DNA from: a virus
Taxonomy: Duplodnaviria; Heunggongvirae; Uroviricota; Caudoviricetes
IMG/VR virus record: IMGVR_UViG_2703718822_000009
Length of the DNA: 33,525 nucleotides
Direction: 5' to 3' (one strand)
Shown: positions 4,345 through 32,340 of the stretch, piece by piece
Layout: each line of letters starts with the position of its first letter
Position numbering within the stretch: the stretch's first letter is position 1
Program-made: the position numbers and the translations under genes
The notes under the pieces: model-generated
What the model was told of the DNA's origin: nothing
Databases searched by the model: none
Seen by the model: the letters and a program-made list of their open reading frames with translations, nothing else

Positions 4345-4465
4345 GTGATCATCATGCACACACAAAAAAACCGCTTGCCAGCGTTCGCCTGGTCGGGTTA
4401 CAGTTTTCCCGCACCTCATAAAACGGGTGCCGGGATTGCAACCCCCGCTGACTACACAAGCGCAC

Positions 4466-4487
4466 AACCGCGCCAGCGGTTTTTTTG
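4466..4487 (+). terminator. Putative intrinsic terminator inside the early-operon gap
   Basis: Stem aaccgc / gcggtt with a 4-nt loop, followed by a T-run (4482-4487), nested in a longer cgcacaa / ttgtgcg helix. Confidence 0.45.
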
Positions 4488-4664
4488 TGCGTACCGCATC
4501 GTCACATCTTTTTCGCGTCAGAATTATGGTGGGGCGTACAGGGCCGACTTCGGTCGGGCCGGGGTCTTGTGTAGCCGGTGGTTGCAACCCTGTACGTCTC
4601 ACCACCCAGAATTGCAACCTCTGGATGGTGAGTTTTCAAAACTTACTACACAAGAGGCCACACC

Positions 4665-4892
4665 ATGGCAAACCGCAAGCAACAGCGCGCCCGCGCTGAG
4701 CGTCTTCACATCCGCACTGAAATCAACCGCAGACTCCATCGGGCTGCATCTGTCACCTTCATCATGCAGTCAAACGCATTACACCGACTTAACGATGGTA
4801 TCGCTGCCGGGTATTACGCCGCCGTCTTCAGCTACCTGGCGGATGACCTGGCAGAACTGCAGGACCTTATCAACCAGCAACACCACCACTAA
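4665..4892 (+). CDS. Hypothetical protein
   Basis: ORF with AAGAGG RBS; basic N-terminus, His-rich C-terminus. Confidence 0.5.
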   Translation: MANRKQQRARAERLHIRTEINRRLHRAASVTFIMQSNALHRLNDGIAAGYYAAVFSYLADDLAELQDLINQQHHH

Positions 4893-4960: not shown

Positions 4961-5377
4961 ATGAAGAGCGTTAAGGGACTTTCAGATATTCAGGACTTTT
5001 TTAACTGGATGTGGGCAGTGGATCCCCGGCTGGCTTCCCGCCTGAACGACTGGCACGACTATTACCGCCGCGCCTGTAAACAGGCCACCAGACGCGTCAC
5101 CACATACGGGGATTTCTCCTTCACCGTTGACGACCGTTACCGCGTGGACGTGAAAGGTGATGGTGATGGTTTTGGTTTATTTCACATCAACGGAACCGAC
5201 AGCACCGCCATCAGCTGGTCGTCGTCAGAGATGACGCTTGTGCTGGAAATGACAACGCACAGCGTGGCCGTGAAAGGCATATACACCGCAGAAGACTTTA
5301 TCGGTGAATACCAGCGCCTTCTCGTGCTGTACCGCGCGGCGTTTCAGGCGGCGACTGCCGGGGAGTGCGACGCATGA
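4961..5377 (+). CDS. Hypothetical protein preceding the replication gene
   Basis: ORF with GGAGG RBS; stop overlaps the gpA start (ATGA). Confidence 0.55.
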   Translation: MKSVKGLSDIQDFFNWMWAVDPRLASRLNDWHDYYRRACKQATRRVTTYGDFSFTVDDRYRVDVKGDGDGFGLFHINGTDSTAISWSSSEMTLVLEMTTHSVAVKGIYTAEDFIGEYQRLLVLYRAAFQAATAGECDA

Positions 5378-7893
5378 GTGACCACAATGCACAGCTGGCG
5401 TACCCGTGGAACGCCCCGCTACCGGTTATCGATCCTGAAACGTTCGGCAGAGCGCAGCCAACCGCATTACGCCAGGCCATTCAGAGCTACATCAACGAGG
5501 ATATTCGCACTGACGCCAGACTGGATGAAGAAACCGTCGCCTTCCTGACAAACACAGACGAAGGGAAGCGAATTAATTCGCATCTTTACCACGACGAAGA
5601 GCGTCGGATCAGGCTGGAAAAACTGGCGCGGCACAAACACGAGAATCCGCCAACACTGGTATCTGAAGCCATGGCAGAGCTGCGCGCCCTGCCGCCGTTT
5701 CTTGCCGGTCCGCTCATCCGTGACCTGGCGCGCCTGAGCCGCAAACAGGAGAGCGCACGCCGGGAAGGGCTTAAGAATAACAGCGCATATGCGGCGGATA
5801 ACTTCGTTCGTCACGGGCTGCGTGCCCGCCTGAAACGTATCGCCCGTGTGAATGAACGCTTTGCCACCCCGGCCTTTAAGGCCACCGCCGCGCGCGAACG
5901 GCTGGATGAACTGCTTATGCTGCCACAGCTGAGCCGTGACGAAATCCAGCGCCTTGCCACCCTGACCGCCACCGCGTTTTCCACCGCACTGGAGCGCGCA
6001 TGTGATGAAGTCATCGAAAAGACCAGCAGGGGTGACGATGACCTGCTCACCTGGTTACTGACCTACCAGCCACTGGCACACATGGCGTTAAAACTGGGTA
6101 TCACGCCACCCTGCTGGCCGTCGCTGGAAATCAGGCCCGACCGCCGCACCGACCCCGACCCGGAACGGGTGCCGGGTGCGGTCATGCGCCTTTCCTGTGC
6201 GACATGGTGGAACAGTCAGTTAAGACACCTCCGGGACATCTGGCGTGAAGAACTGTTACGCGCCGCAGGTCTGGTGTCACGTAAGACATCGGTATATATC
6301 AGCCATGAAGCGTTACTGGACTGGCGCGAAAAACGCCAGCGCACCCGCGATTTTCTGAAGGCCTGGGACATCGAGAACGAAGAGGGAGAACGGTTCAGCC
6401 TTGAGGATATCTACTGGGCAGGTCTCTCTAATCCGCGTAACCGCCGTAACGAGATGATGACCTGCGCCCGGGGAATGGAGCAGGTCGCCGAAGCACGCGG
6501 CGACGTGGCGTTTTTCGTCACCGTCACAACCCCTTCCCGTTTTCACAGCGTGAACGATGACGGCAGCCTGAACCCGAAATACTGCGGAGCAACGGTACGC
6601 GATGCCAGTGATTATCTGGTTTACCGCTTTTTCGCCGCCGTCCGCAGGGCCATCGACAAGGCCGGGCTGGGCTGGTACGGCGTGCGCACCGTGGAGCCCC
6701 ACCACGACGGTACACCGCACTGGCACATGCTGGTATTCACCAGCCAGGAAAACGAAGCCCGTATCACTGAAATCATGCGCAACGCCGCCATCAGGGAGGA
6801 CCGCGCAGAGCTGGGTGATGATATCTCCCCGCGTTTTAAATGCGAAAAAATCGACCCGACAAAAGGCACACCGACAAGCTATATCGCGACCTATATCGGT
6901 AAGAATCTGGACGCCAGCGCCTTCATGGGGAATGACCCGAAAACCGGCAAACCTTACGTCGATAAGGAATCAGGCAAAACCATGGCCGAAACCGTGGAGA
7001 ACGCCATCGGCTGGGCAGGCCTTCACCGCATCCACCAGTTCCAGTTCTTCGGTATCCCTCCCCGCCAGGTATGGCGCGAACTCCGCCGTCTTGCCGGGCA
7101 AATGGCCCGTAACCCGGCTGCCCCGCAGCGTCTGGACCATGACGACATTGACGCCATACTGGCCGCCGCCGACGTGGGATGTTTTGCCACCTATATCACC
7201 CGCCAGGGTGGTGTGCTCATTCCCCGCAACACGTACCTGGTCCGCACCGCATACGAAACTGCCGAAGAGGCCAACGACTACGGCGAATTCCCGCAACGCA
7301 TTTACGGCGTCCGCGCCCCGTCACTCGGGGAGCGCTACACCATATGCACCCACCCGGACACCTGGAAACTGGTCAGACGTAAGCCGGAAAACGAAGACCG
7401 CACGGACGAGGGTTTTGACGTTGAGTGCGGCTTTTCCGCACCTTGGACTCGTGGCAATAACTGTCCCCCTGACCAGAATCTGACCATAAACGACCCGCCA
7501 GAAAGGCAGCCGGACGGACGCAGGGAGCAGCGACTTACCCTGCCGGAAGGTGATTTGGGTGAATGGTTAAGGTCACTTACCCCCACAGAGCGAAAACAAC
7601 TCACCAGGCAGCTGAAAAACCCGCCACCTGACACGGAAACCGTGAAAAACGGCGGCATCAGTGCGCCCGCTGGCGGCGTTCGCGTGAGTGTCGCTCTGAC
7701 CGCTGAACCACACATCACCGCACAAATCACCCGCGAGCTTGATGCGCTGGGCGTGCAGCCGCATGAAAGCGCCGTCGTTTCCGTCCGTCACGGTGCCCGC
7801 GTGCGCCTGGCTGACGGGCGCACCGCGTACTGGAATGACAGCACCCGCCGCATTGATATCACCCCCGCACAGAATACGGAGGCGCCACAATGA
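5374..7893 (+). CDS. Rolling-circle replication initiator, P2 gpA-like
   Basis: ORF 5365..7893 (GTG) trimmed to the ATG at 5374 after GGGAG. HUH motif (VEPHHDGTPHWHMLVF) and a paired-tyrosine motif (SYIATYIGKN) typical of the gpA / phiX174 A family. Confidence 0.92.
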   Translation: MSDHNAQLAYPWNAPLPVIDPETFGRAQPTALRQAIQSYINEDIRTDARLDEETVAFLTNTDEGKRINSHLYHDEERRIRLEKLARHKHENPPTLVSEAMAELRALPPFLAGPLIRDLARLSRKQESARREGLKNNSAYAADNFVRHGLRARLKRIARVNERFATPAFKATAARERLDELLMLPQLSRDEIQRLATLTATAFSTALERACDEVIEKTSRGDDDLLTWLLTYQPLAHMALKLGITPPCWPSLEIRPDRRTDPDPERVPGAVMRLSCATWWNSQLRHLRDIWREELLRAAGLVSRKTSVYISHEALLDWREKRQRTRDFLKAWDIENEEGERFSLEDIYWAGLSNPRNRRNEMMTCARGMEQVAEARGDVAFFVTVTTPSRFHSVNDDGSLNPKYCGATVRDASDYLVYRFFAAVRRAIDKAGLGWYGVRTVEPHHDGTPHWHMLVFTSQENEARITEIMRNAAIREDRAELGDDISPRFKCEKIDPTKGTPTSYIATYIGKNLDASAFMGNDPKTGKPYVDKESGKTMAETVENAIGWAGLHRIHQFQFFGIPPRQVWRELRRLAGQMARNPAAPQRLDHDDIDAILAAADVGCFATYITRQGGVLIPRNTYLVRTAYETAEEANDYGEFPQRIYGVRAPSLGERYTICTHPDTWKLVRRKPENEDRTDEGFDVECGFSAPWTRGNNCPPDQNLTINDPPERQPDGRREQRLTLPEGDLGEWLRSLTPTERKQLTRQLKNPPPDTETVKNGGISAPAGGVRVSVALTAEPHITAQITRELDALGVQPHESAVVSVRHGARVRLADGRTAYWNDSTRRIDITPAQNTEAPQ

Positions 7894-8294
7894 CCCGCTT
7901 TTATTGCGCCATGCAGCGCCAGCGTTTTGACGAAATGATGCGCCAGCGCACGCCCTTACTGACCCTGAACAACATTGCCACGGGGCCACAACCGGGCGAT
8001 GAGCTGGAAATCACGGTCGTCAGTCCCGATCGCACCACCACGGCCATCATCACCGACATACTCAACGGACGACCGGACAGCACCAACCGCAGCTGGCTTG
8101 TCGCCGTTCGTCCGCGCCGTCCGCCCGGAGAGCCGGAGCCGCTCACGCCTGCCGGAAAAATCATGCGGCAGTACCACGAAGAGCAGGCACACAAACACAA
8201 CGCAGAACTGACCAGAACACTGGCATCGATTAACCGCAAAGCGGCAATTGCCCGCTATGTGCATTCAGCCGCTGGCAGACAATCACGCAGGTAA
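7890..8294 (+). CDS. Hypothetical protein after gpA
   Basis: ATG overlaps the gpA stop (ATGA); GGAGG RBS; no recognisable motif. Confidence 0.5.
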   Translation: MTRFYCAMQRQRFDEMMRQRTPLLTLNNIATGPQPGDELEITVVSPDRTTTAIITDILNGRPDSTNRSWLVAVRPRRPPGEPEPLTPAGKIMRQYHEEQAHKHNAELTRTLASINRKAAIARYVHSAAGRQSRR

Positions 8295-8342
8295 ACAAAG
8301 ACCATGAACATAACCAGAAACAGCCAACTAAAGGAGCGCACC

Positions 8343-8513
8343 ATGAACAGCACCAGGAGGATCAGCGACAGAGAGCTTACGAAAATGATTGAGTCGGCGC
8401 AGCAGCTGCTTTCACGACAAAACCCGGTCGTGGAAGAAACATGGTGGGAGAATTTACTGGCAGCACTGACCGAACTCCGGGAACGCCGGAACAACGAAGG
8501 AGCCGCCAAATGA
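8343..8513 (+). CDS. Hypothetical small protein
   Basis: ORF 8304..8513 trimmed to the ATG at 8343, preceded by AAGGAG. Confidence 0.4.
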   Translation: MNSTRRISDRELTKMIESAQQLLSRQNPVVEETWWENLLAALTELRERRNNEGAAK

Positions 8514-8836
8514 AGACCCCAGGAATGACCGGAAAGGAAATCATTTTACGCTACCTGGAAACGCACGCACGTTTCAGCGCCCCAGAACTGGTAGAAAAAC
8601 TGGGCGTGAAAAGAACCGTCATTAATCAGGCCGCCGGAAAAATGGTACGGGAAGGGTTGCTGGTTGTGGACGGGTACACGGACAAGATAACGCATTACCG
8701 GAAGCCAACGGAAAAGGAACGACAGGAACTGGCGCAACGGGCTGAACAGCAGCAGGAAAAATCAGTCATCGAAGCCTGCAAGCGCAGCGAAATCATGAAG
8801 CGAATTCTGTTTATCTACGGCGCTGCATTCCGTTAA
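8510..8836 (+). CDS. Putative winged-helix DNA-binding protein
   Basis: ORF 8441..8836 trimmed to the ATG at 8510, which overlaps the upstream stop. EIILRYLETHARFSAPELVEKLGVKRTVINQAAGKMVREGLLVV resembles a MarR/winged-HTH fold (pattern-level). Confidence 0.5.
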   Translation: MKTPGMTGKEIILRYLETHARFSAPELVEKLGVKRTVINQAAGKMVREGLLVVDGYTDKITHYRKPTEKERQELAQRAEQQQEKSVIEACKRSEIMKRILFIYGAAFR

Positions 8837-8850
8837 AGGAGCTGGTGAGT

Positions 8851-8875
8851 CGGGGCAAAAATTCTTTTTGCCCCG
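8851..8875. terminator. Bidirectional intrinsic terminator between convergent operons
   Basis: Perfect 11-bp inverted repeat cggggcaaaaa / tttttgccccg with a 3-nt loop; A/T runs on both arms; sits between the end of the + early operon and the end of ogr (-). Confidence 0.6.
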
Positions 8876-8901
8876 GCGAAGCAGCAGACAAGCGAAGCGC
8901 G

Positions 8902-9165
8902 TCAGGAACGCCGCGACAGTAGTTCAAGCGCATACCGGCGATCTTCCGGGCACATGGCATCAACAAGAAACTTCACCATATTGCGACCGGAGCGGGCGCC
9001 GGGGCTGAGGGTATGGGAAAAGGTCATCGTACAGACGAAGGTATGCCCGCATTCGACATCACTGCATGCACAGTACAGATCCGCAAGTTCAGGGGTTTTC
9101 CAGTCTGTCTTCCGGATGACAGCAGGTGCGCCACAGTCAGGACACCGGGCTTTAAAAATCCGCAT
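8902..9165 (-). CDS. ogr: Late transcription activator, Ogr/Delta zinc-finger family
   Basis: ORF 8902..9255(-) trimmed to the ATG at 9165 with GGAGG 5 nt upstream (MRIFKARCPDCG...). C-x2-C ... C-x4-C-x3-F cysteine pattern matches P2 Ogr as recalled. Confidence 0.85.
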   Translation of the reverse strand: MRIFKARCPDCGAPAVIRKTDWKTPELADLYCACSDVECGHTFVCTMTFSHTLSPGARSGRNMVKFLVDAMCPEDRRYALELLSRRS

Positions 9166-30699: not shown

Positions 30700-31280
30700 A
30701 TGGACGAAACGCCCCACGTAATCCCCACGTAAAACGTCGCGTAACGAAGAGATAACCCCGCCAGCCTGATTCGATCCCCTGACATCAGAAAACGATTTCT
30801 GCGCCCCAAAATCGCCGCAAATGGCCGGAAATTTTCGGGGGCGACGTAACGCGTAAAGTGACGTAATCGGCGCTACCCCGCACACGCCTCCGGTATTTGT
30901 GTACGATAAATTTTGCAAATCGAAAGGGGTGCAAAACACCCCGCCAGGGCGCGCCATTACTGAGGATTTCCCTTCTGAATGGTTTTGCACTTTGTGCAAG
31001 GTTTTGCAAAAGTGTGCAAAAACTCCGGCTTTCTGAGGATCCCGAAAAATTTTAATGCACTGAATAACAAGAGATTTTTAAAATTACGTCACGATCGAAG
31101 ATCTGAAAAAGGATCCGACGACGAAAACGAAAAAATCAGGAAAGCCAGAACTGGCGCGGCCTGGCGGGGAGTGGCAGCAAAAATCACTTTTGCACACTTT
31201 TGCACAACTGCTCCGAAAAAGGATGGCGAAGGGGAAGGAAAAACAGCCACGTCATCCGTTGCACGTAACGGACGTAAAAG
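30700..31280. repeat. Repeat-rich non-coding region: CGTAA-type repeats, DnaA-box-like 9-mers, GATC cluster
   Basis: (C/G)ACGTAA repeats in three clusters (30715-30745, 30843-30866, 31248-31280). Relaxed DnaA-box matches TTTTGCACA at 31188-31196 and 31198-31206 and an inverted set at 30982-31020. Three GATC within about 30 bp at 31090-31125 in an AT-rich stretch. Confidence 0.4.
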
Positions 31281-31440
31281 GTAAATTACGCGCGGGTGCC
31301 TTTCGGCTGACGGCTGGAAGGATTACCTGAAGGCCGGATGAGGAAAGGCCCCGAGTCAAACATTTGTTTAACCCGAGGCCCTAACCCATCTACCTCGCAA
31401 GTGGAAGGTTAGCGCCTCCCTGTAAAAGGAGTCAAGCGCT

Positions 31441-31581
31441 ATGCCGCAAAAAACGATCATAGTGAGCATTTTATGCATAACTATTTTGATGATTGTCTGG
31501 ATGATACACAAGTCACCGTGTGAGTTCAGGCTTAACATCATGTGGTCAGAATTTGCGGCGTTCTTGCAGTGTAAACAGTAA
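31441..31581 (+). CDS. Hok/Gef-family type I toxin (46 aa)
   Basis: Hand translation MPQKTIIVSILCITILMIVWMIHKSPCEFRLNIMWSEFAAFLQCKQ: TM helix then K-S-x-C-E-x-R and E-x-A-A-F, as in Hok/Gef proteins; AAGGAG RBS. Confidence 0.8.
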   Translation: MPQKTIIVSILCITILMIVWMIHKSPCEFRLNIMWSEFAAFLQCKQ

Positions 31582-31671
31582 GAAACCGCAGCGGGGGTGA
31601 AAGCCCCCGCTATCCGGTTGCCGGGTTCGGTCGATATGGCACCCTTTCTCCGTTGGATTACAGACGTATTT

Positions 31672-31697
31672 GCCCGCGACATGCGGGCCTTTTTGTT
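31672..31697 (+). terminator. Intrinsic terminator of hok-like locus 1
   Basis: gcccgc / gcgggc stem with a 5-nt loop, followed by CTTTTTGTT. Confidence 0.6.
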
Positions 31698-31900
31698 CAG
31701 TTGTATTTATTGTGGTCGTTACTGGCAGTGGTATTAACTGATTTTGCATGAATAGCACAAATTTTTTCCACGATAACACCACACGCTTCAAGATCTTCCG
31801 GGCGTGAAACCTTTATTTTTGTAATAGTCTCAGGATTATCAGCCGTTCCACTTTGCACAACCTCAATTTCAATTTTTTTTCTTGAAAGAATCATTTTCAT
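31697..31900 (-). CDS. Hypothetical small protein between the two hok-like loci
   Basis: 67-aa ORF (MKMILSRKKIEIEVVQSG...), weak RBS, AT-rich; may be a remnant. Confidence 0.25.
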   Translation of the reverse strand: MKMILSRKKIEIEVVQSGTADNPETITKIKVSRPEDLEACGVIVEKICAIHAKSVNTTASNDHNKYN

Positions 31901-32003
31901 CGCCCCGACACAGGACAGAGTAAGCCTGTGCGAAAGAATATCACCAGTGCGATAGCGTTGTCTGCTTCAACGCCAGGCATTGCACACACAAAGGGAAATC
32001 AGT

Positions 32004-32340
32004 ACATTACACGCGGGTGCCTTTCGGCTGATGGCTGGAAGGATTACCTGAAGGCCGGATGTGGAAAGGCCCCGAGTCAACTTTAATGTTAACCCGAGGC
32101 CCTAACACTTCCTACCGTGACAAGTGGAAGGTTAGCGCCTCCCTGTANNNNNNNNNNNNNNNNNNNNNNNNNNNNNNNNNNNNNNNNNNNNNNNNNNNNN
32201 NNNNNNNNNNNNNNNNNNNNNNNNNNNNNNNNNNNNNNNNNNNNNNNNNNNNNNNNNNNNNNNNGGTCGATATGGCACCCTTTCTCCGTTGAATTACATA
32301 GACATTTGCCCGCGATATGCGGGCTATATTTTTATTTTTT
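32004..32340 (+). other. hok/sok-like locus, copy 2 (interior replaced by an N-run)
   Basis: 5' arm 32004-32147 and 3' arm 32265-32340 are closely similar to copy 1 (same GGGTGCC / GGCACCC pair and the same gcccgc...gcgggc terminator at 32308-32324); the toxin ORF region is masked by N. Confidence 0.55.
32148..32264. other. Run of N (assembly gap or masked sequence)
   Basis: 117 consecutive N characters inside hok-like copy 2. Confidence 0.95.

Follow-up and report, generated by a model that had tools for sequence, protein, structure and literature searches.

A Ren family gene behind the rolling-circle replication gene of a P2-like Escherichia coli prophage

The three small genes that directly follow the replication gene gpA in a P2-like prophage of Escherichia coli (IMG/VR record IMGVR_UViG_2703718822_000009; the window analysed here is the entire stretch of 33,525 nucleotides) appear to form the tail of the early operon, with the first gene (ORF1) encoding a partner of gpA and the third one (ORF3) a Ren-like counter-exclusion protein. 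We consider this reading somewhat better than an even bet, with a probability of about 0.55. The evidence consists of the gene structure, homology, synteny and mosaic boundaries observed at the locus, together with the replaceability of ORF3. On this proposal, the three ORFs would be the promoter-distal genes of the early (replication) operon and not a lysogenic-conversion cassette in the style of the tin and old genes of phage P2.

Organization of the locus

The product of gpA shows highly significant matches to the Pfam family Phage_GPA (E 9.5e-106) and to phrog_91 (E 8e-234), and is named 'replication endonuclease' in RefSeq. Directly 3' of this gene, on the same strand, three ORFs of 134, 56 (or 69) and 108 amino acids occupy positions 7890-8836 (Table 1). 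The same three CDS are annotated in RefSeq, all three proteins match PHROG families, and each ORF is preceded by a Shine-Dalgarno sequence (GGAGG located 7 nt upstream of ORF1, AAGGAG located 6 nt upstream of the ORF2 start at 8343, and GAAGGAG located 7 nt upstream of ORF3). Comparison with diverged prophages indicates purifying selection on all three (dN/dS 0.18-0.52). These are genuine genes, in agreement with the earlier note, which had described three small genes after gpA from the DNA alone. The note had also described all three as translationally coupled; this holds for the gpA/ORF1 (7890-7893) and ORF2/ORF3 junctions, both of which are ATGA overlaps, but not for ORF1 and ORF2, between which lie 48 nt (9 nt if ORF2 starts at the alternative ATG at 8304, which lacks a Shine-Dalgarno sequence).

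A consensus-type promoter scan detected no sigma-70-like promoter between positions 7600 and 9400, a simple test that a weak or non-sigma-70 promoter could escape. [quoted passage not shown] The Ogr/Delta gene is convergent with the locus and forms its right-hand boundary.

Table 1. Features of the gpA-distal region and the evidence for their assignment
Feature	Coordinates	Strand	Evidence
gpA, P2-type rolling-circle replication endonuclease, 842 aa	5365..7893	+	Pfam Phage_GPA, phrog_91, RefSeq name
ORF1, 134 aa	7890..8294	+	predicted barrel; positional counterpart of P2 Orf91
ORF2, small helical protein, 56 aa (69 aa from alternative ATG 8304)	8343..8513	+	nearly invariant core
ORF3, lambda Ren homologue, 108 aa	8510..8836	+	phrog_142, BLASTP, tblastn, AF2 model
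Perfect 10-bp hairpin GGGGCAAAAA-ttc-TTTTTGCCCC, without U-tract	8852..8874	.	fold, conservation
Conserved block GGCGAAGCAGCAGACAAGCGAAGCGCGTCAG	8875..8905	.	cos-like; first 19 nt = putative cohesive end
Ogr/Delta-type zinc-finger late-gene activator	8902..9165	-	Pfam Ogr_Delta E 2.2e-15; RefSeq CDS

The locus lies between gpA and the portal gene/cos, so that its placement by the earlier note at the position of tin/old stands. This interval (gpA-gpQ, or gpA-portal) is a known variation hotspot of P2-like prophages that carries defence systems (Rousset et al. 2022, PMC9122126, with 18,150 loci); the accessible part of the supplements of that paper does not list the protein accessions of the present locus. 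The prophage itself belongs to an uncultured P2-like lineage of E. coli that has no cultured representative. The best match for the whole prophage is Salmonella phage SI7, which aligns with 12% of the query at 71% identity, and neither ORF1 nor ORF2 has a significant match among 50,697 phage genomes in nucleotide and tblastn searches.

ORF3 and the Ren family

ORF3 matches phrog_142 ('Ren-like exclusion protein') over residues 4-107 (E 6.3e-29) and aligns in BLASTP with residues 1-93 of the 96 residues of lambda Ren (42% identity, E 7e-27). In tblastn searches, the match to lambda extends over 95% of the query at 40.8% identity (E 1e-14), Ren proteins of lambda, phage 21 and Stx phages share about 41% identity with ORF3 over 95% of its length, and 170 phage records annotated as Ren and adjoining P or DnaC are retrieved. 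These alignments place ORF3 in the Ren family, with homology to lambda Ren along its full length. The assertion of the earlier note that none of the three proteins matches a family does not survive these searches, but its suggestion of a winged helix in ORF3 is borne out by near-threshold Pfam matches and by structure prediction. The AlphaFold2 model comprises a winged helix (residues 8-64, pLDDT about 90) followed by C-terminal helices, and the motif of the predicted recognition helix, T.INQAA.KM.R.GLLV, is common to the Ren proteins of lambda and of the P2-type loci.

The P2-type Ren proteins, including ORF3, form a distinct clade, with 84-98% identity inside the clade and at most 44% identity to the lambdoid Rens; no intermediates between the two were found among the loci listed. 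In IMG/VR, 74 of the 80 Ren loci follow a lambda-type P gene and the rest follow gpA-ORF1-ORF2. None of the six P2-type Ren loci contains a homologue of lambda P, the upstream replication gene being the Phage_GPA rolling-circle endonuclease. The DNA of ORF3 is present in 33 of 5426 complete E. coli genomes. A search for Ren relatives in species-representative genomes retrieved mostly phage-lambda-like contigs in unrelated taxa, which are likely lambda control DNA and uninformative on distribution.

The small ORF2 protein, which abuts Ren in all six of these P2-type loci, matches phrog_14672 (E 3e-32) and the C-terminal part of phrog_7520 (E 7e-11). Its homologues fall into 75 clusters, all from E. 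coli, with 70-97% identity, and searches of Pfam, PDB (nothing below E 0.06) and PADLOC gave no match. The idea that ORF2 is a C-terminal remnant of lambda P travelling with ren was rejected (hhalign probability 0.05%).

ORF1, a conserved partner of gpA

In the predicted structure of ORF1, an ASCH/DUF3850-like beta-barrel (residues 3-75) is joined by a Pro-rich linker to a long, basic helix at the C-terminus (residues 87-133); the model was built from a shallow alignment of 15 sequences (pLDDT 77, pTM 0.45, with three of the five models near 57). The best PDB match of the predicted N-terminal domain is 3iuw, a sequence relative of P2 Orf91, and DUF3850/ASCH phage proteins are among the matches in BFVD. 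A PUA-like beta-barrel of the ASCH/DUF3850 type appears likely from this modelling. No family was matched in Pfam by ORF1 or 15 family members, without any ASCH/DUF3850 signal, and hhalign of ORF1 with P2 Orf91 yielded a probability of 0.2%, with no detectable sequence similarity. Because both comparisons were blank, kinship at the sequence level between ORF1 and P2 Orf91/DUF3850 was rejected; the two are connected by predicted fold and synteny only. A PDB search with the ORF1 sequence found nothing below E 0.06.

The ORF1 family is narrow. A profile search against 1.84 billion representatives recovered only three true representatives of the family, three further matches being marginal and low-complexity-like, and no sequence relatives were found outside E. 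coli, where ORF1 DNA is present in 67 of 5426 complete genomes. In every examined prophage of this gpA subclade, ORF1 directly follows gpA. ORF1 is a lineage-conserved partner of this subclade and not exchangeable cargo.

Gene exchange at the locus

Two sister prophages with 98%-identical flanks (L002 and L003) delimit the exchangeable part of the locus. Homology to both stops at 8488 and resumes at 8822/8840, and the segment 8489-8822/8840 is swapped precisely for unrelated small genes, with ORF1 and ORF2 retained. Among the three ORFs, ORF3, and only ORF3, is turnover cargo. The accessory locus with cargo turnover envisaged in the earlier note is found, then, as far as ORF3 is concerned, but the three genes do not make up an accessory cassette: ORF1 travels with the gpA subclade, and ORF2 persists in the sister prophages without ORF3. 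The opposite outcome named in the note, conserved core genes of the phage lineage, describes ORF1 and, within this lineage, ORF2, but not ORF3.

In comparison with a further prophage (L004), dS is 0.11 for ORF2 and 0.29 for ORF3, with values of 0.80 for gpA and 0.96 for ORF1, and nucleotide identity jumps at about position 8200, from about 60% to 83-95%. Because of these low dS values, the identity jump and the juxtaposition of ORF2 and Ren in six of six loci, ORF2 and ORF3 can be viewed as a coupled pair that probably moves between P2-like lineages as a unit.

A cos-like region downstream of ORF3

The 'strong bidirectional terminator' with which, according to the earlier note, the three genes end is a different kind of element. 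The hairpin downstream of ORF3 can be extended to a 13-bp stem (8849-8877; -19.5 kcal/mol, z -5.7), but neither strand carries a U-tract after it, the stem being followed by GGCGAAGC on the plus strand and by GACTCACC on the minus strand, and it is absent from the calls of the terminator scan. An intrinsic terminator combines a G+C-rich stem-loop with a U-tract; the hairpin is not one. It belongs to a block of approximately 64 nt, located next to the portal gene, that more than 120 P88-like viral contigs have conserved. The hairpin is kept in 120 IMG/VR loci, with a compensatory A:T to T:A change at one arm position. The part of the block that follows the hairpin (8875..8905) is 93% identical to the sequence beside the portal gene of P88-like phages and is invariant in 120 viral contigs, divergence starting immediately after it. 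The region comprising the hairpin and this block looks like cos, with a predicted 19-nt 5' overhang, GGCGAAGCAGCAGACAAGC, from 8875. An assignment of the hairpin to gyrA-RNA was dismissed, the Rfam match being sub-threshold (25 bits, compared with the gathering score of 45).

Possible functions of the three genes

Ren has been known genetically since 1980, the literature links it with initiator/helicase-loader replication modules, and its discoverers reportedly suspect a role in replication. According to the supplement of 10.1101/2021.04.19.439022, the lambda genes O, P and ren overlap at their ends, the growth of lambda lacking functional ren is poor on Rex+ lysogens, two-hybrid tests show contacts of Ren with both RexA and RexB, and Ren shields its own phage from Rex exclusion and excludes no others. 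By analogy with lambda ren, ORF3 would be produced alongside the replication proteins in lytic growth and would guard the replication of its own phage against a Rex-type abortive-infection/exclusion system of resident lambdoid prophages, probably acting by protein-protein contact via the conserved surface of the winged helix. A Ren-like counter-exclusion or replication-protecting factor is the likeliest identity of ORF3 that this analogy suggests; we know of no report of Rex exclusion of P2-like phages. ORF1, translationally coupled to gpA, would contribute a nucleic-acid-binding barrel and a basic helix, as a counterpart of P2 Orf91.

The same gene order can be accommodated by another, rather less probable explanation, in which Ren, including the P2-type, has no part in counter-defence and acts as an accessory factor in phage DNA replication, assisting or timing it; examples would be a switch of replication mode or a contact with the membrane or a host factor, with ORF1-ORF2-ORF3 all serving as gpA auxiliaries. 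The invariable position of ren genes at the end of replication operons, in the 170 phage records and the 80 IMG/VR loci alike, agrees with such a role, as do the coupling of ORF1 to gpA and its predicted nucleic-acid-binding fold, but lambda ren is dispensable (PMC10695390), and ORF3 is replaced by unrelated genes between nearly identical flanks. Moreover, the Ren family is found behind unrelated initiators, namely O/P, which act by helicase loading in theta-type replication, and the nickase gpA of rolling-circle replication, and, since these are mechanistically unrelated, specific contact of Ren with its own replication proteins is unlikely. That ORF3 is instead an ordinary transcriptional regulator of the MarR/GntR type, a DNA-binding dimer controlling phage or host genes such as ogr, appears improbable. 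Proteins of the MarR family (PF01047/PF12802) have about 140-150 amino acids, and their winged helix is flanked by N- and C-terminal helices through which the proteins dimerise; in ORF3, the predicted winged helix starts at residue 8 of 108 and lacks flanking dimerisation helices. The MarR name carried by this protein in RefSeq and many databases agrees with near-threshold Pfam matches to MarR_2 (E 9e-6), HTH_24 and GntR, but the MarR_2 match, limited to 42 residues (12-53), reaches 26.2 bits where the gathering cut-off is 27, MarR proper (PF01047) is not matched at E 1 or better, and the full-length specific homologues of ORF3 are Ren proteins.

Least probable of all, and in our estimate very unlikely, is that the trio serves lysogenic conversion as an exclusion or defence cassette, equivalent to P2 tin/old, and protects the lysogen from other phages. 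The location in the gpA-portal hotspot with its defence systems (PMC9122126), the word 'exclusion' in the PHROG name of the ORF3 family and the variation of ORF3 among related prophages would all be expected of such a cassette. However, tin and old are encoded on the opposite strand and have their own promoter and mapped transcript starts, in contrast to the gpA strand, the coupling and the lack of a detected promoter here, and ORF1 and ORF2, instead of being cargo, are conserved along with the replication gene. PADLOC gave nothing for ORF1 and ORF2 and, for ORF3, only weak, generic winged-helix segments, none of them significant (best, MkoB, E 1.6e-4). The small exclusion factor considered in the earlier note fares no better, with no match to a defence family and with lambda Ren, the closest characterised relative, countering exclusion, as stated in the supplement of 10.1101/2021.04.19.439022.

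Under the preferred reading, with ORF3 as a Ren-like counter-exclusion gene at the operon tail, the locus would represent a known family in a new context and not a new kind of system, and its value lies in annotation and hypothesis generation. An exchangeable Ren homologue behind a rolling-circle initiator argues for a target outside the replication proteins of the phage itself, and provides a second, independent system for probing the relationship between Rex and Ren. The gpA-portal 'defence hotspot' apparently can also carry lytic-cycle genes of the counter-defence type that current tools miss, the present one being labelled 'MarR regulator'. A tentative but reasonable possibility is that Ren is a portable module that can be attached to the end of the replication operon of any temperate coliphage, here with the dedicated 56-aa ORF2, and that its surface recognizes a target common to both contexts, either RexA/RexB-like proteins or a host factor. 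If so, the P2-type ORF2-Ren pair would be a new, uncatalogued anti-abortive-infection module of P2-like phages and a clean heterologous system for studying Ren function and the Rex trigger.

Comparison with known systems

The beginning and the end of the locus both have parallels in P2. Similarly to ORF1 after gpA, P2 orf91 directly follows gene A with an ATGA stop/start overlap (last position of A, 30319; first position of orf91, 30316), although ORF1 possesses the additional Pro-rich linker and a basic helix of about 47 residues, and its family occurs only in E. coli prophages of a single gpA subclade. From this parallel, a conserved partner with the ASCH fold, produced by translational coupling, can be suggested for some gpA proteins; such a partner is not general to gpA because no coupled ORF follows A in phages 186 and P88. 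At the other end, a hairpin in P2 is directly followed by cos, GGCGAGGCGGGGAAAGCAC, the same layout as that of 8852-8905.

With tin/old and the systems of the gpA-gpQ hotspot, the locus shares the interval, from the replication gene to cos/portal, and a cos-proximal slot whose content varies among close prophages. It differs in that those systems are autonomous and expressed in the lysogen, whereas the genes described here appear to prolong the early operon, and in that no defence family is matched, the variable gene being akin to a counter-exclusion gene.

The closest parallel is lambda Ren, likewise a protein of about 100 amino acids with a winged helix and C-terminal helices, encoded at the end of a replication operon by a gene whose start overlaps the stop of its upstream neighbour. 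Lambda ren is non-essential, and ORF3 is replaceable between sister prophages. Unlike lambda ren, ORF3 is located behind a gpA rolling-circle initiator and not behind an O/P or DnaC initiator/helicase-loader pair, and is preceded by the 56-aa ORF2, which is unrelated to P. The protein also has five additional N-terminal residues and a longer acidic/basic linker, and goes under the label of MarR in databases.

Organization of the locus

The window represents a P2-like E. coli prophage in which three small genes follow the replication gene gpA on the same strand (Table), as an earlier note on this DNA had described. RefSeq also annotates these three genes in a prophage of strain N51 that is 99.3% identical, calling two of them hypothetical proteins and one a 'MarR family transcriptional regulator', and each of the three starts has a good Shine-Dalgarno sequence. 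The dN/dS values of 0.18-0.52 for ORF1, ORF2 and ORF3 against diverged relatives indicate that these are real coding genes. Translational coupling, proposed for all of them, holds for gpA/ORF1 and ORF2/ORF3, which overlap by ATGA, but not for ORF1/ORF2, with 48 nt between them. The locus forms the ordinary tail of an operon within a known hotspot. The original observation is correct, its interpretation incomplete.

Features of the window discussed in the text
Feature	Coordinates	Strand	Remarks
isrK Hfq-binding RNA	4411-4486	+	Rfam, 59.6 bits
C4 antisense RNA	4522-4609	+	Rfam, 78 bits
'Derepression protein' gene	4665-4892		75 aa
gpA replication endonuclease	5365-7893	+	Pfam Phage_GPA, E 9.5e-106
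ORF1	7890-8294	same as gpA	134 aa
ORF2	8343-8513	same as gpA	56 aa (69 aa from ATG at 8304)
ORF3	8510-8836	same as gpA	108 aa
Putative cos block	8836-8905		includes the hairpin
Hairpin	8852-8874		after ORF3
Ogr/Delta gene	8902-9165	minus	past the hairpin; portal and terminase genes come next

Two other parts of the window deserve mention. The isrK and C4 matches, both above the gathering score, lie in the 320-nt gap directly 5' of the 'derepression protein' gene, and this stretch resembles an RNA-controlled antirepressor module of the P1 c4/ant type, set within a P2-like early region. Near the right end, a segment at about 31280-32150 is 89% identical to a Stx-converting phage segment annotated 'MokW-like host killing' (a hok/sok-type toxin region) and may lie outside the P2-like prophage.

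ORF3 is a member of the Ren family

The initial impression that none of the genes belongs to a recognisable family does not hold for ORF3, which matches phrog_142, 'Ren-like exclusion protein', in PHROGs (E 6e-29) and lambda Ren in pairwise BLASTP (42% identity, residues 1-93/96, E 7e-27). A tblastn search of 50,697 phage genomes matched 170 records, lambda itself at 40.8% identity over 95% of the query; among the records listed, the match is ren located directly 3' of replication gene P or a DnaC-type loader. The winged-helix character of ORF3 is supported by the structural model (residues 8-64, pLDDT about 90), for which fold comparison gave generic winged helices. Of the 80 best Ren loci in IMG/VR, 74 belong to the lambda type, with at most 44% identity to ORF3 and lambda P preceding, whereas the remaining six are a tight clade of the P2 type, 84-98% identical. 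ORF2 precedes Ren in all six of the latter, and gpA-ORF1 is also present in all five with enough flanking sequence. ORF3, wrongly annotated as a MarR regulator, belongs to a known family of unsolved function and stands in a replication context new for it.

The genome contig scan also detected lambda-type ren genes in assemblies of Pseudomonas, Shewanella, Oceanobacillus, Bradyrhizobium, Veillonella and others (L132-L148). Their identity to ORF3, about 42%, equals that of lambda Ren itself, and several of the contigs are of low coverage and about 48.4 kb long; they are almost certainly phage-lambda control DNA contaminating the assemblies.

ORF1 and ORF2

The ORF1 family is tiny, with 35 clusters at 90% identity (every cluster with a source name is from E. 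coli) and only 3 real representatives among 1.84 billion proteins; no match was found in Pfam, PDB sequences or phage genomes. The AlphaFold model (pLDDT 77) consists of a small beta-barrel (residues 3-75) and a long helix (87-133), and a Foldseek search against viral models retrieves proteins named DUF3850 or ASCH. The DUF3850 protein Orf91 of P2, which matches 3iuw by sequence (E 5e-11), starts 4 nt ahead of the gene A end, a geometry identical to that of ORF1 and gpA, although the two proteins show no detectable sequence similarity. Given these model matches and the shared overlap, ORF1 is best read as the counterpart of Orf91 in position and, as predicted, in structure. A coupled gene of this kind is lacking after A in phages 186 and P88. 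Compared with L004, L154 and L158, from a more distant lineage that carries ORF2-ORF3, no part of the whole region has diverged further than the last roughly 60 codons of gpA together with the ORF1 barrel (7700-8200; 49-67% nucleotide identity vs about 74% in the gpA body); this may reflect either interacting surfaces that vary together or the scar of a recombination.

The core of the helical mini-protein ORF2, ISD..L.KMIESAQQLLSR.NPVVEETWWENLLAALTELRERR, is almost invariant. PHROGs links the protein to phrog_14672 and to phrog_7520 (C-terminal half), families without assigned function; PADLOC, PDB sequences and phage genomes gave no further lead, and kinship with lambda P was ruled out on comparison.

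Core and cargo

Of 5426 complete E. coli genomes, 67 contain ORF1 DNA and 33 contain ORF3 DNA. In two sister prophages with 98%-identical flanks, homology spans gpA, ORF1 and ORF2 up to 8488 and restarts at 8840 or 8822, with unrelated small genes in place of ORF3; the cargo turnover that the earlier note proposed to look for is seen for ORF3 but not for ORF1 and ORF2. Other prophages of the same gpA subclade retain ORF1 followed by quite different content, including DUF7446, an Ead/Ea22-like gene, HTH and PIN genes, and IS600. Against L004 and L154-L158, nucleotide identity is about 60% across the gpA C-terminus and ORF1 barrel and climbs to 83-95% between about 8200 and about 8800; dS against L004 is 0.80 for gpA, 0.96 for ORF1, 0.11 for ORF2 and 0.29 for ORF3. 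On this evidence, ORF1 co-diverges with gpA, ORF2-ORF3 is a cassette traded between lineages, and ORF3 alone occupies the swappable cos-proximal slot.

The dS of ORF2 is unusually low beside the neighbouring genes, and the breakpoint at 8488 falls within its 3' end; the conserved sequence may serve as a homology arm for swapping the downstream slot. In the lineage of L004 (6896-7758) and L153-L156, a short SSB gene (105 aa) comes after the cassette, and L004 has in addition a DUF4760 gene on the opposite strand, so the slot is larger there and mixes replication-type and unknown genes.

The hairpin and a putative cos region

The 'strong bidirectional terminator' thought to close the locus is a strong hairpin, GGGGCAAAAAttcTTTTTGCCCC, with an extended 13-bp stem (8849-8877, -19.5 kcal/mol), but not a canonical intrinsic terminator. 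It lacks a U-tract, and the terminator scan did not pick it up; it may still impede transcription. In combination with the GGCGAAGCAGCAGACAAGCGAAGCGCGTCAG that follows, it makes up a block that is 93% conserved beside the portal gene in P88-like phages and occurs in at least 120 IMG/VR contigs, where the hairpin arms carry, at a single position, a compensatory change relative to the window, and divergence sets in directly behind the block. P2 has the same layout, a hairpin being directly followed by its 19-nt cos, GGCGAGGCGGGGAAAGCAC. We infer that the block is the cos region.

The block is nearly unchanged between the window prophage and P88-like (Xuanwuvirus) phages (L012-L131), despite only 31% identity of the portal proteins and only about 52% of gpA, which suggests a packaging signal common to diverged head modules. 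In the lineage of the window, the Ogr/Delta late activator gene sits between cos and portal; ogr is missing from this interval in the P2 stretches compared, and most P88-like loci with the same cos block also have no Ogr gene there. In P2, ogr lies near attP.

Proposed function and comparison with known systems

Upon induction or infection, the early transcript would pass from gpA through ORF1-ORF2-ORF3. ORF1 would be produced in step with gpA as its nucleic-acid-binding accessory, and ORF3, judging from its homology to lambda Ren, would shield the replicating phage from Rex-type exclusion by resident lambdoid prophages. ORF3 and lambda Ren share a recognition-helix motif despite unrelated replication initiators, which suggests that the target lies elsewhere than in the replication proteins of the phage itself. 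We give this picture as a whole a probability of about 0.55. In 10.1101/2021.04.19.439022, lambda ren mutants are described as growing poorly on Rex+ lysogens, with suppressors in O and P, and RexA and RexB both interact with Ren in two-hybrid tests; the same text reports terminal overlaps among O, P and ren, states that all initiator/helicase-loader modules come with ren, and regards the biochemical function of Ren as still unsolved. The gene is dispensable (PMC10695390). A role of Ren purely in replication is a less probable reading. That ORF3 is an ordinary MarR-type regulator, as its RefSeq name implies, is improbable: the Pfam match behind the label scores 26.2 bits, below the cut-off of 27, and covers 42 residues, and the MarR dimerisation helices are absent from the model.

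P2-like prophages yielded hardly any anti-defence genes in a 2026 survey (10.64898/2026.02.27.708500); a Ren-type gene in such prophages would escape present tools. The proposal that ORF1-ORF3 form an exclusion cassette like P2 tin/old is correct as to position, the gpA-portal interval being the hotspot known from P2, for which 18,150 loci show 1,650 arrangements (PMC9122126). As to function, it is very improbable: no defence family matches ORF1-ORF3, and the promoter scan found no promoter-like site at the locus. In P2, the opposite strand carries tin and old, which have mapped promoters, whereas ORF1-ORF3 continue the gpA operon.
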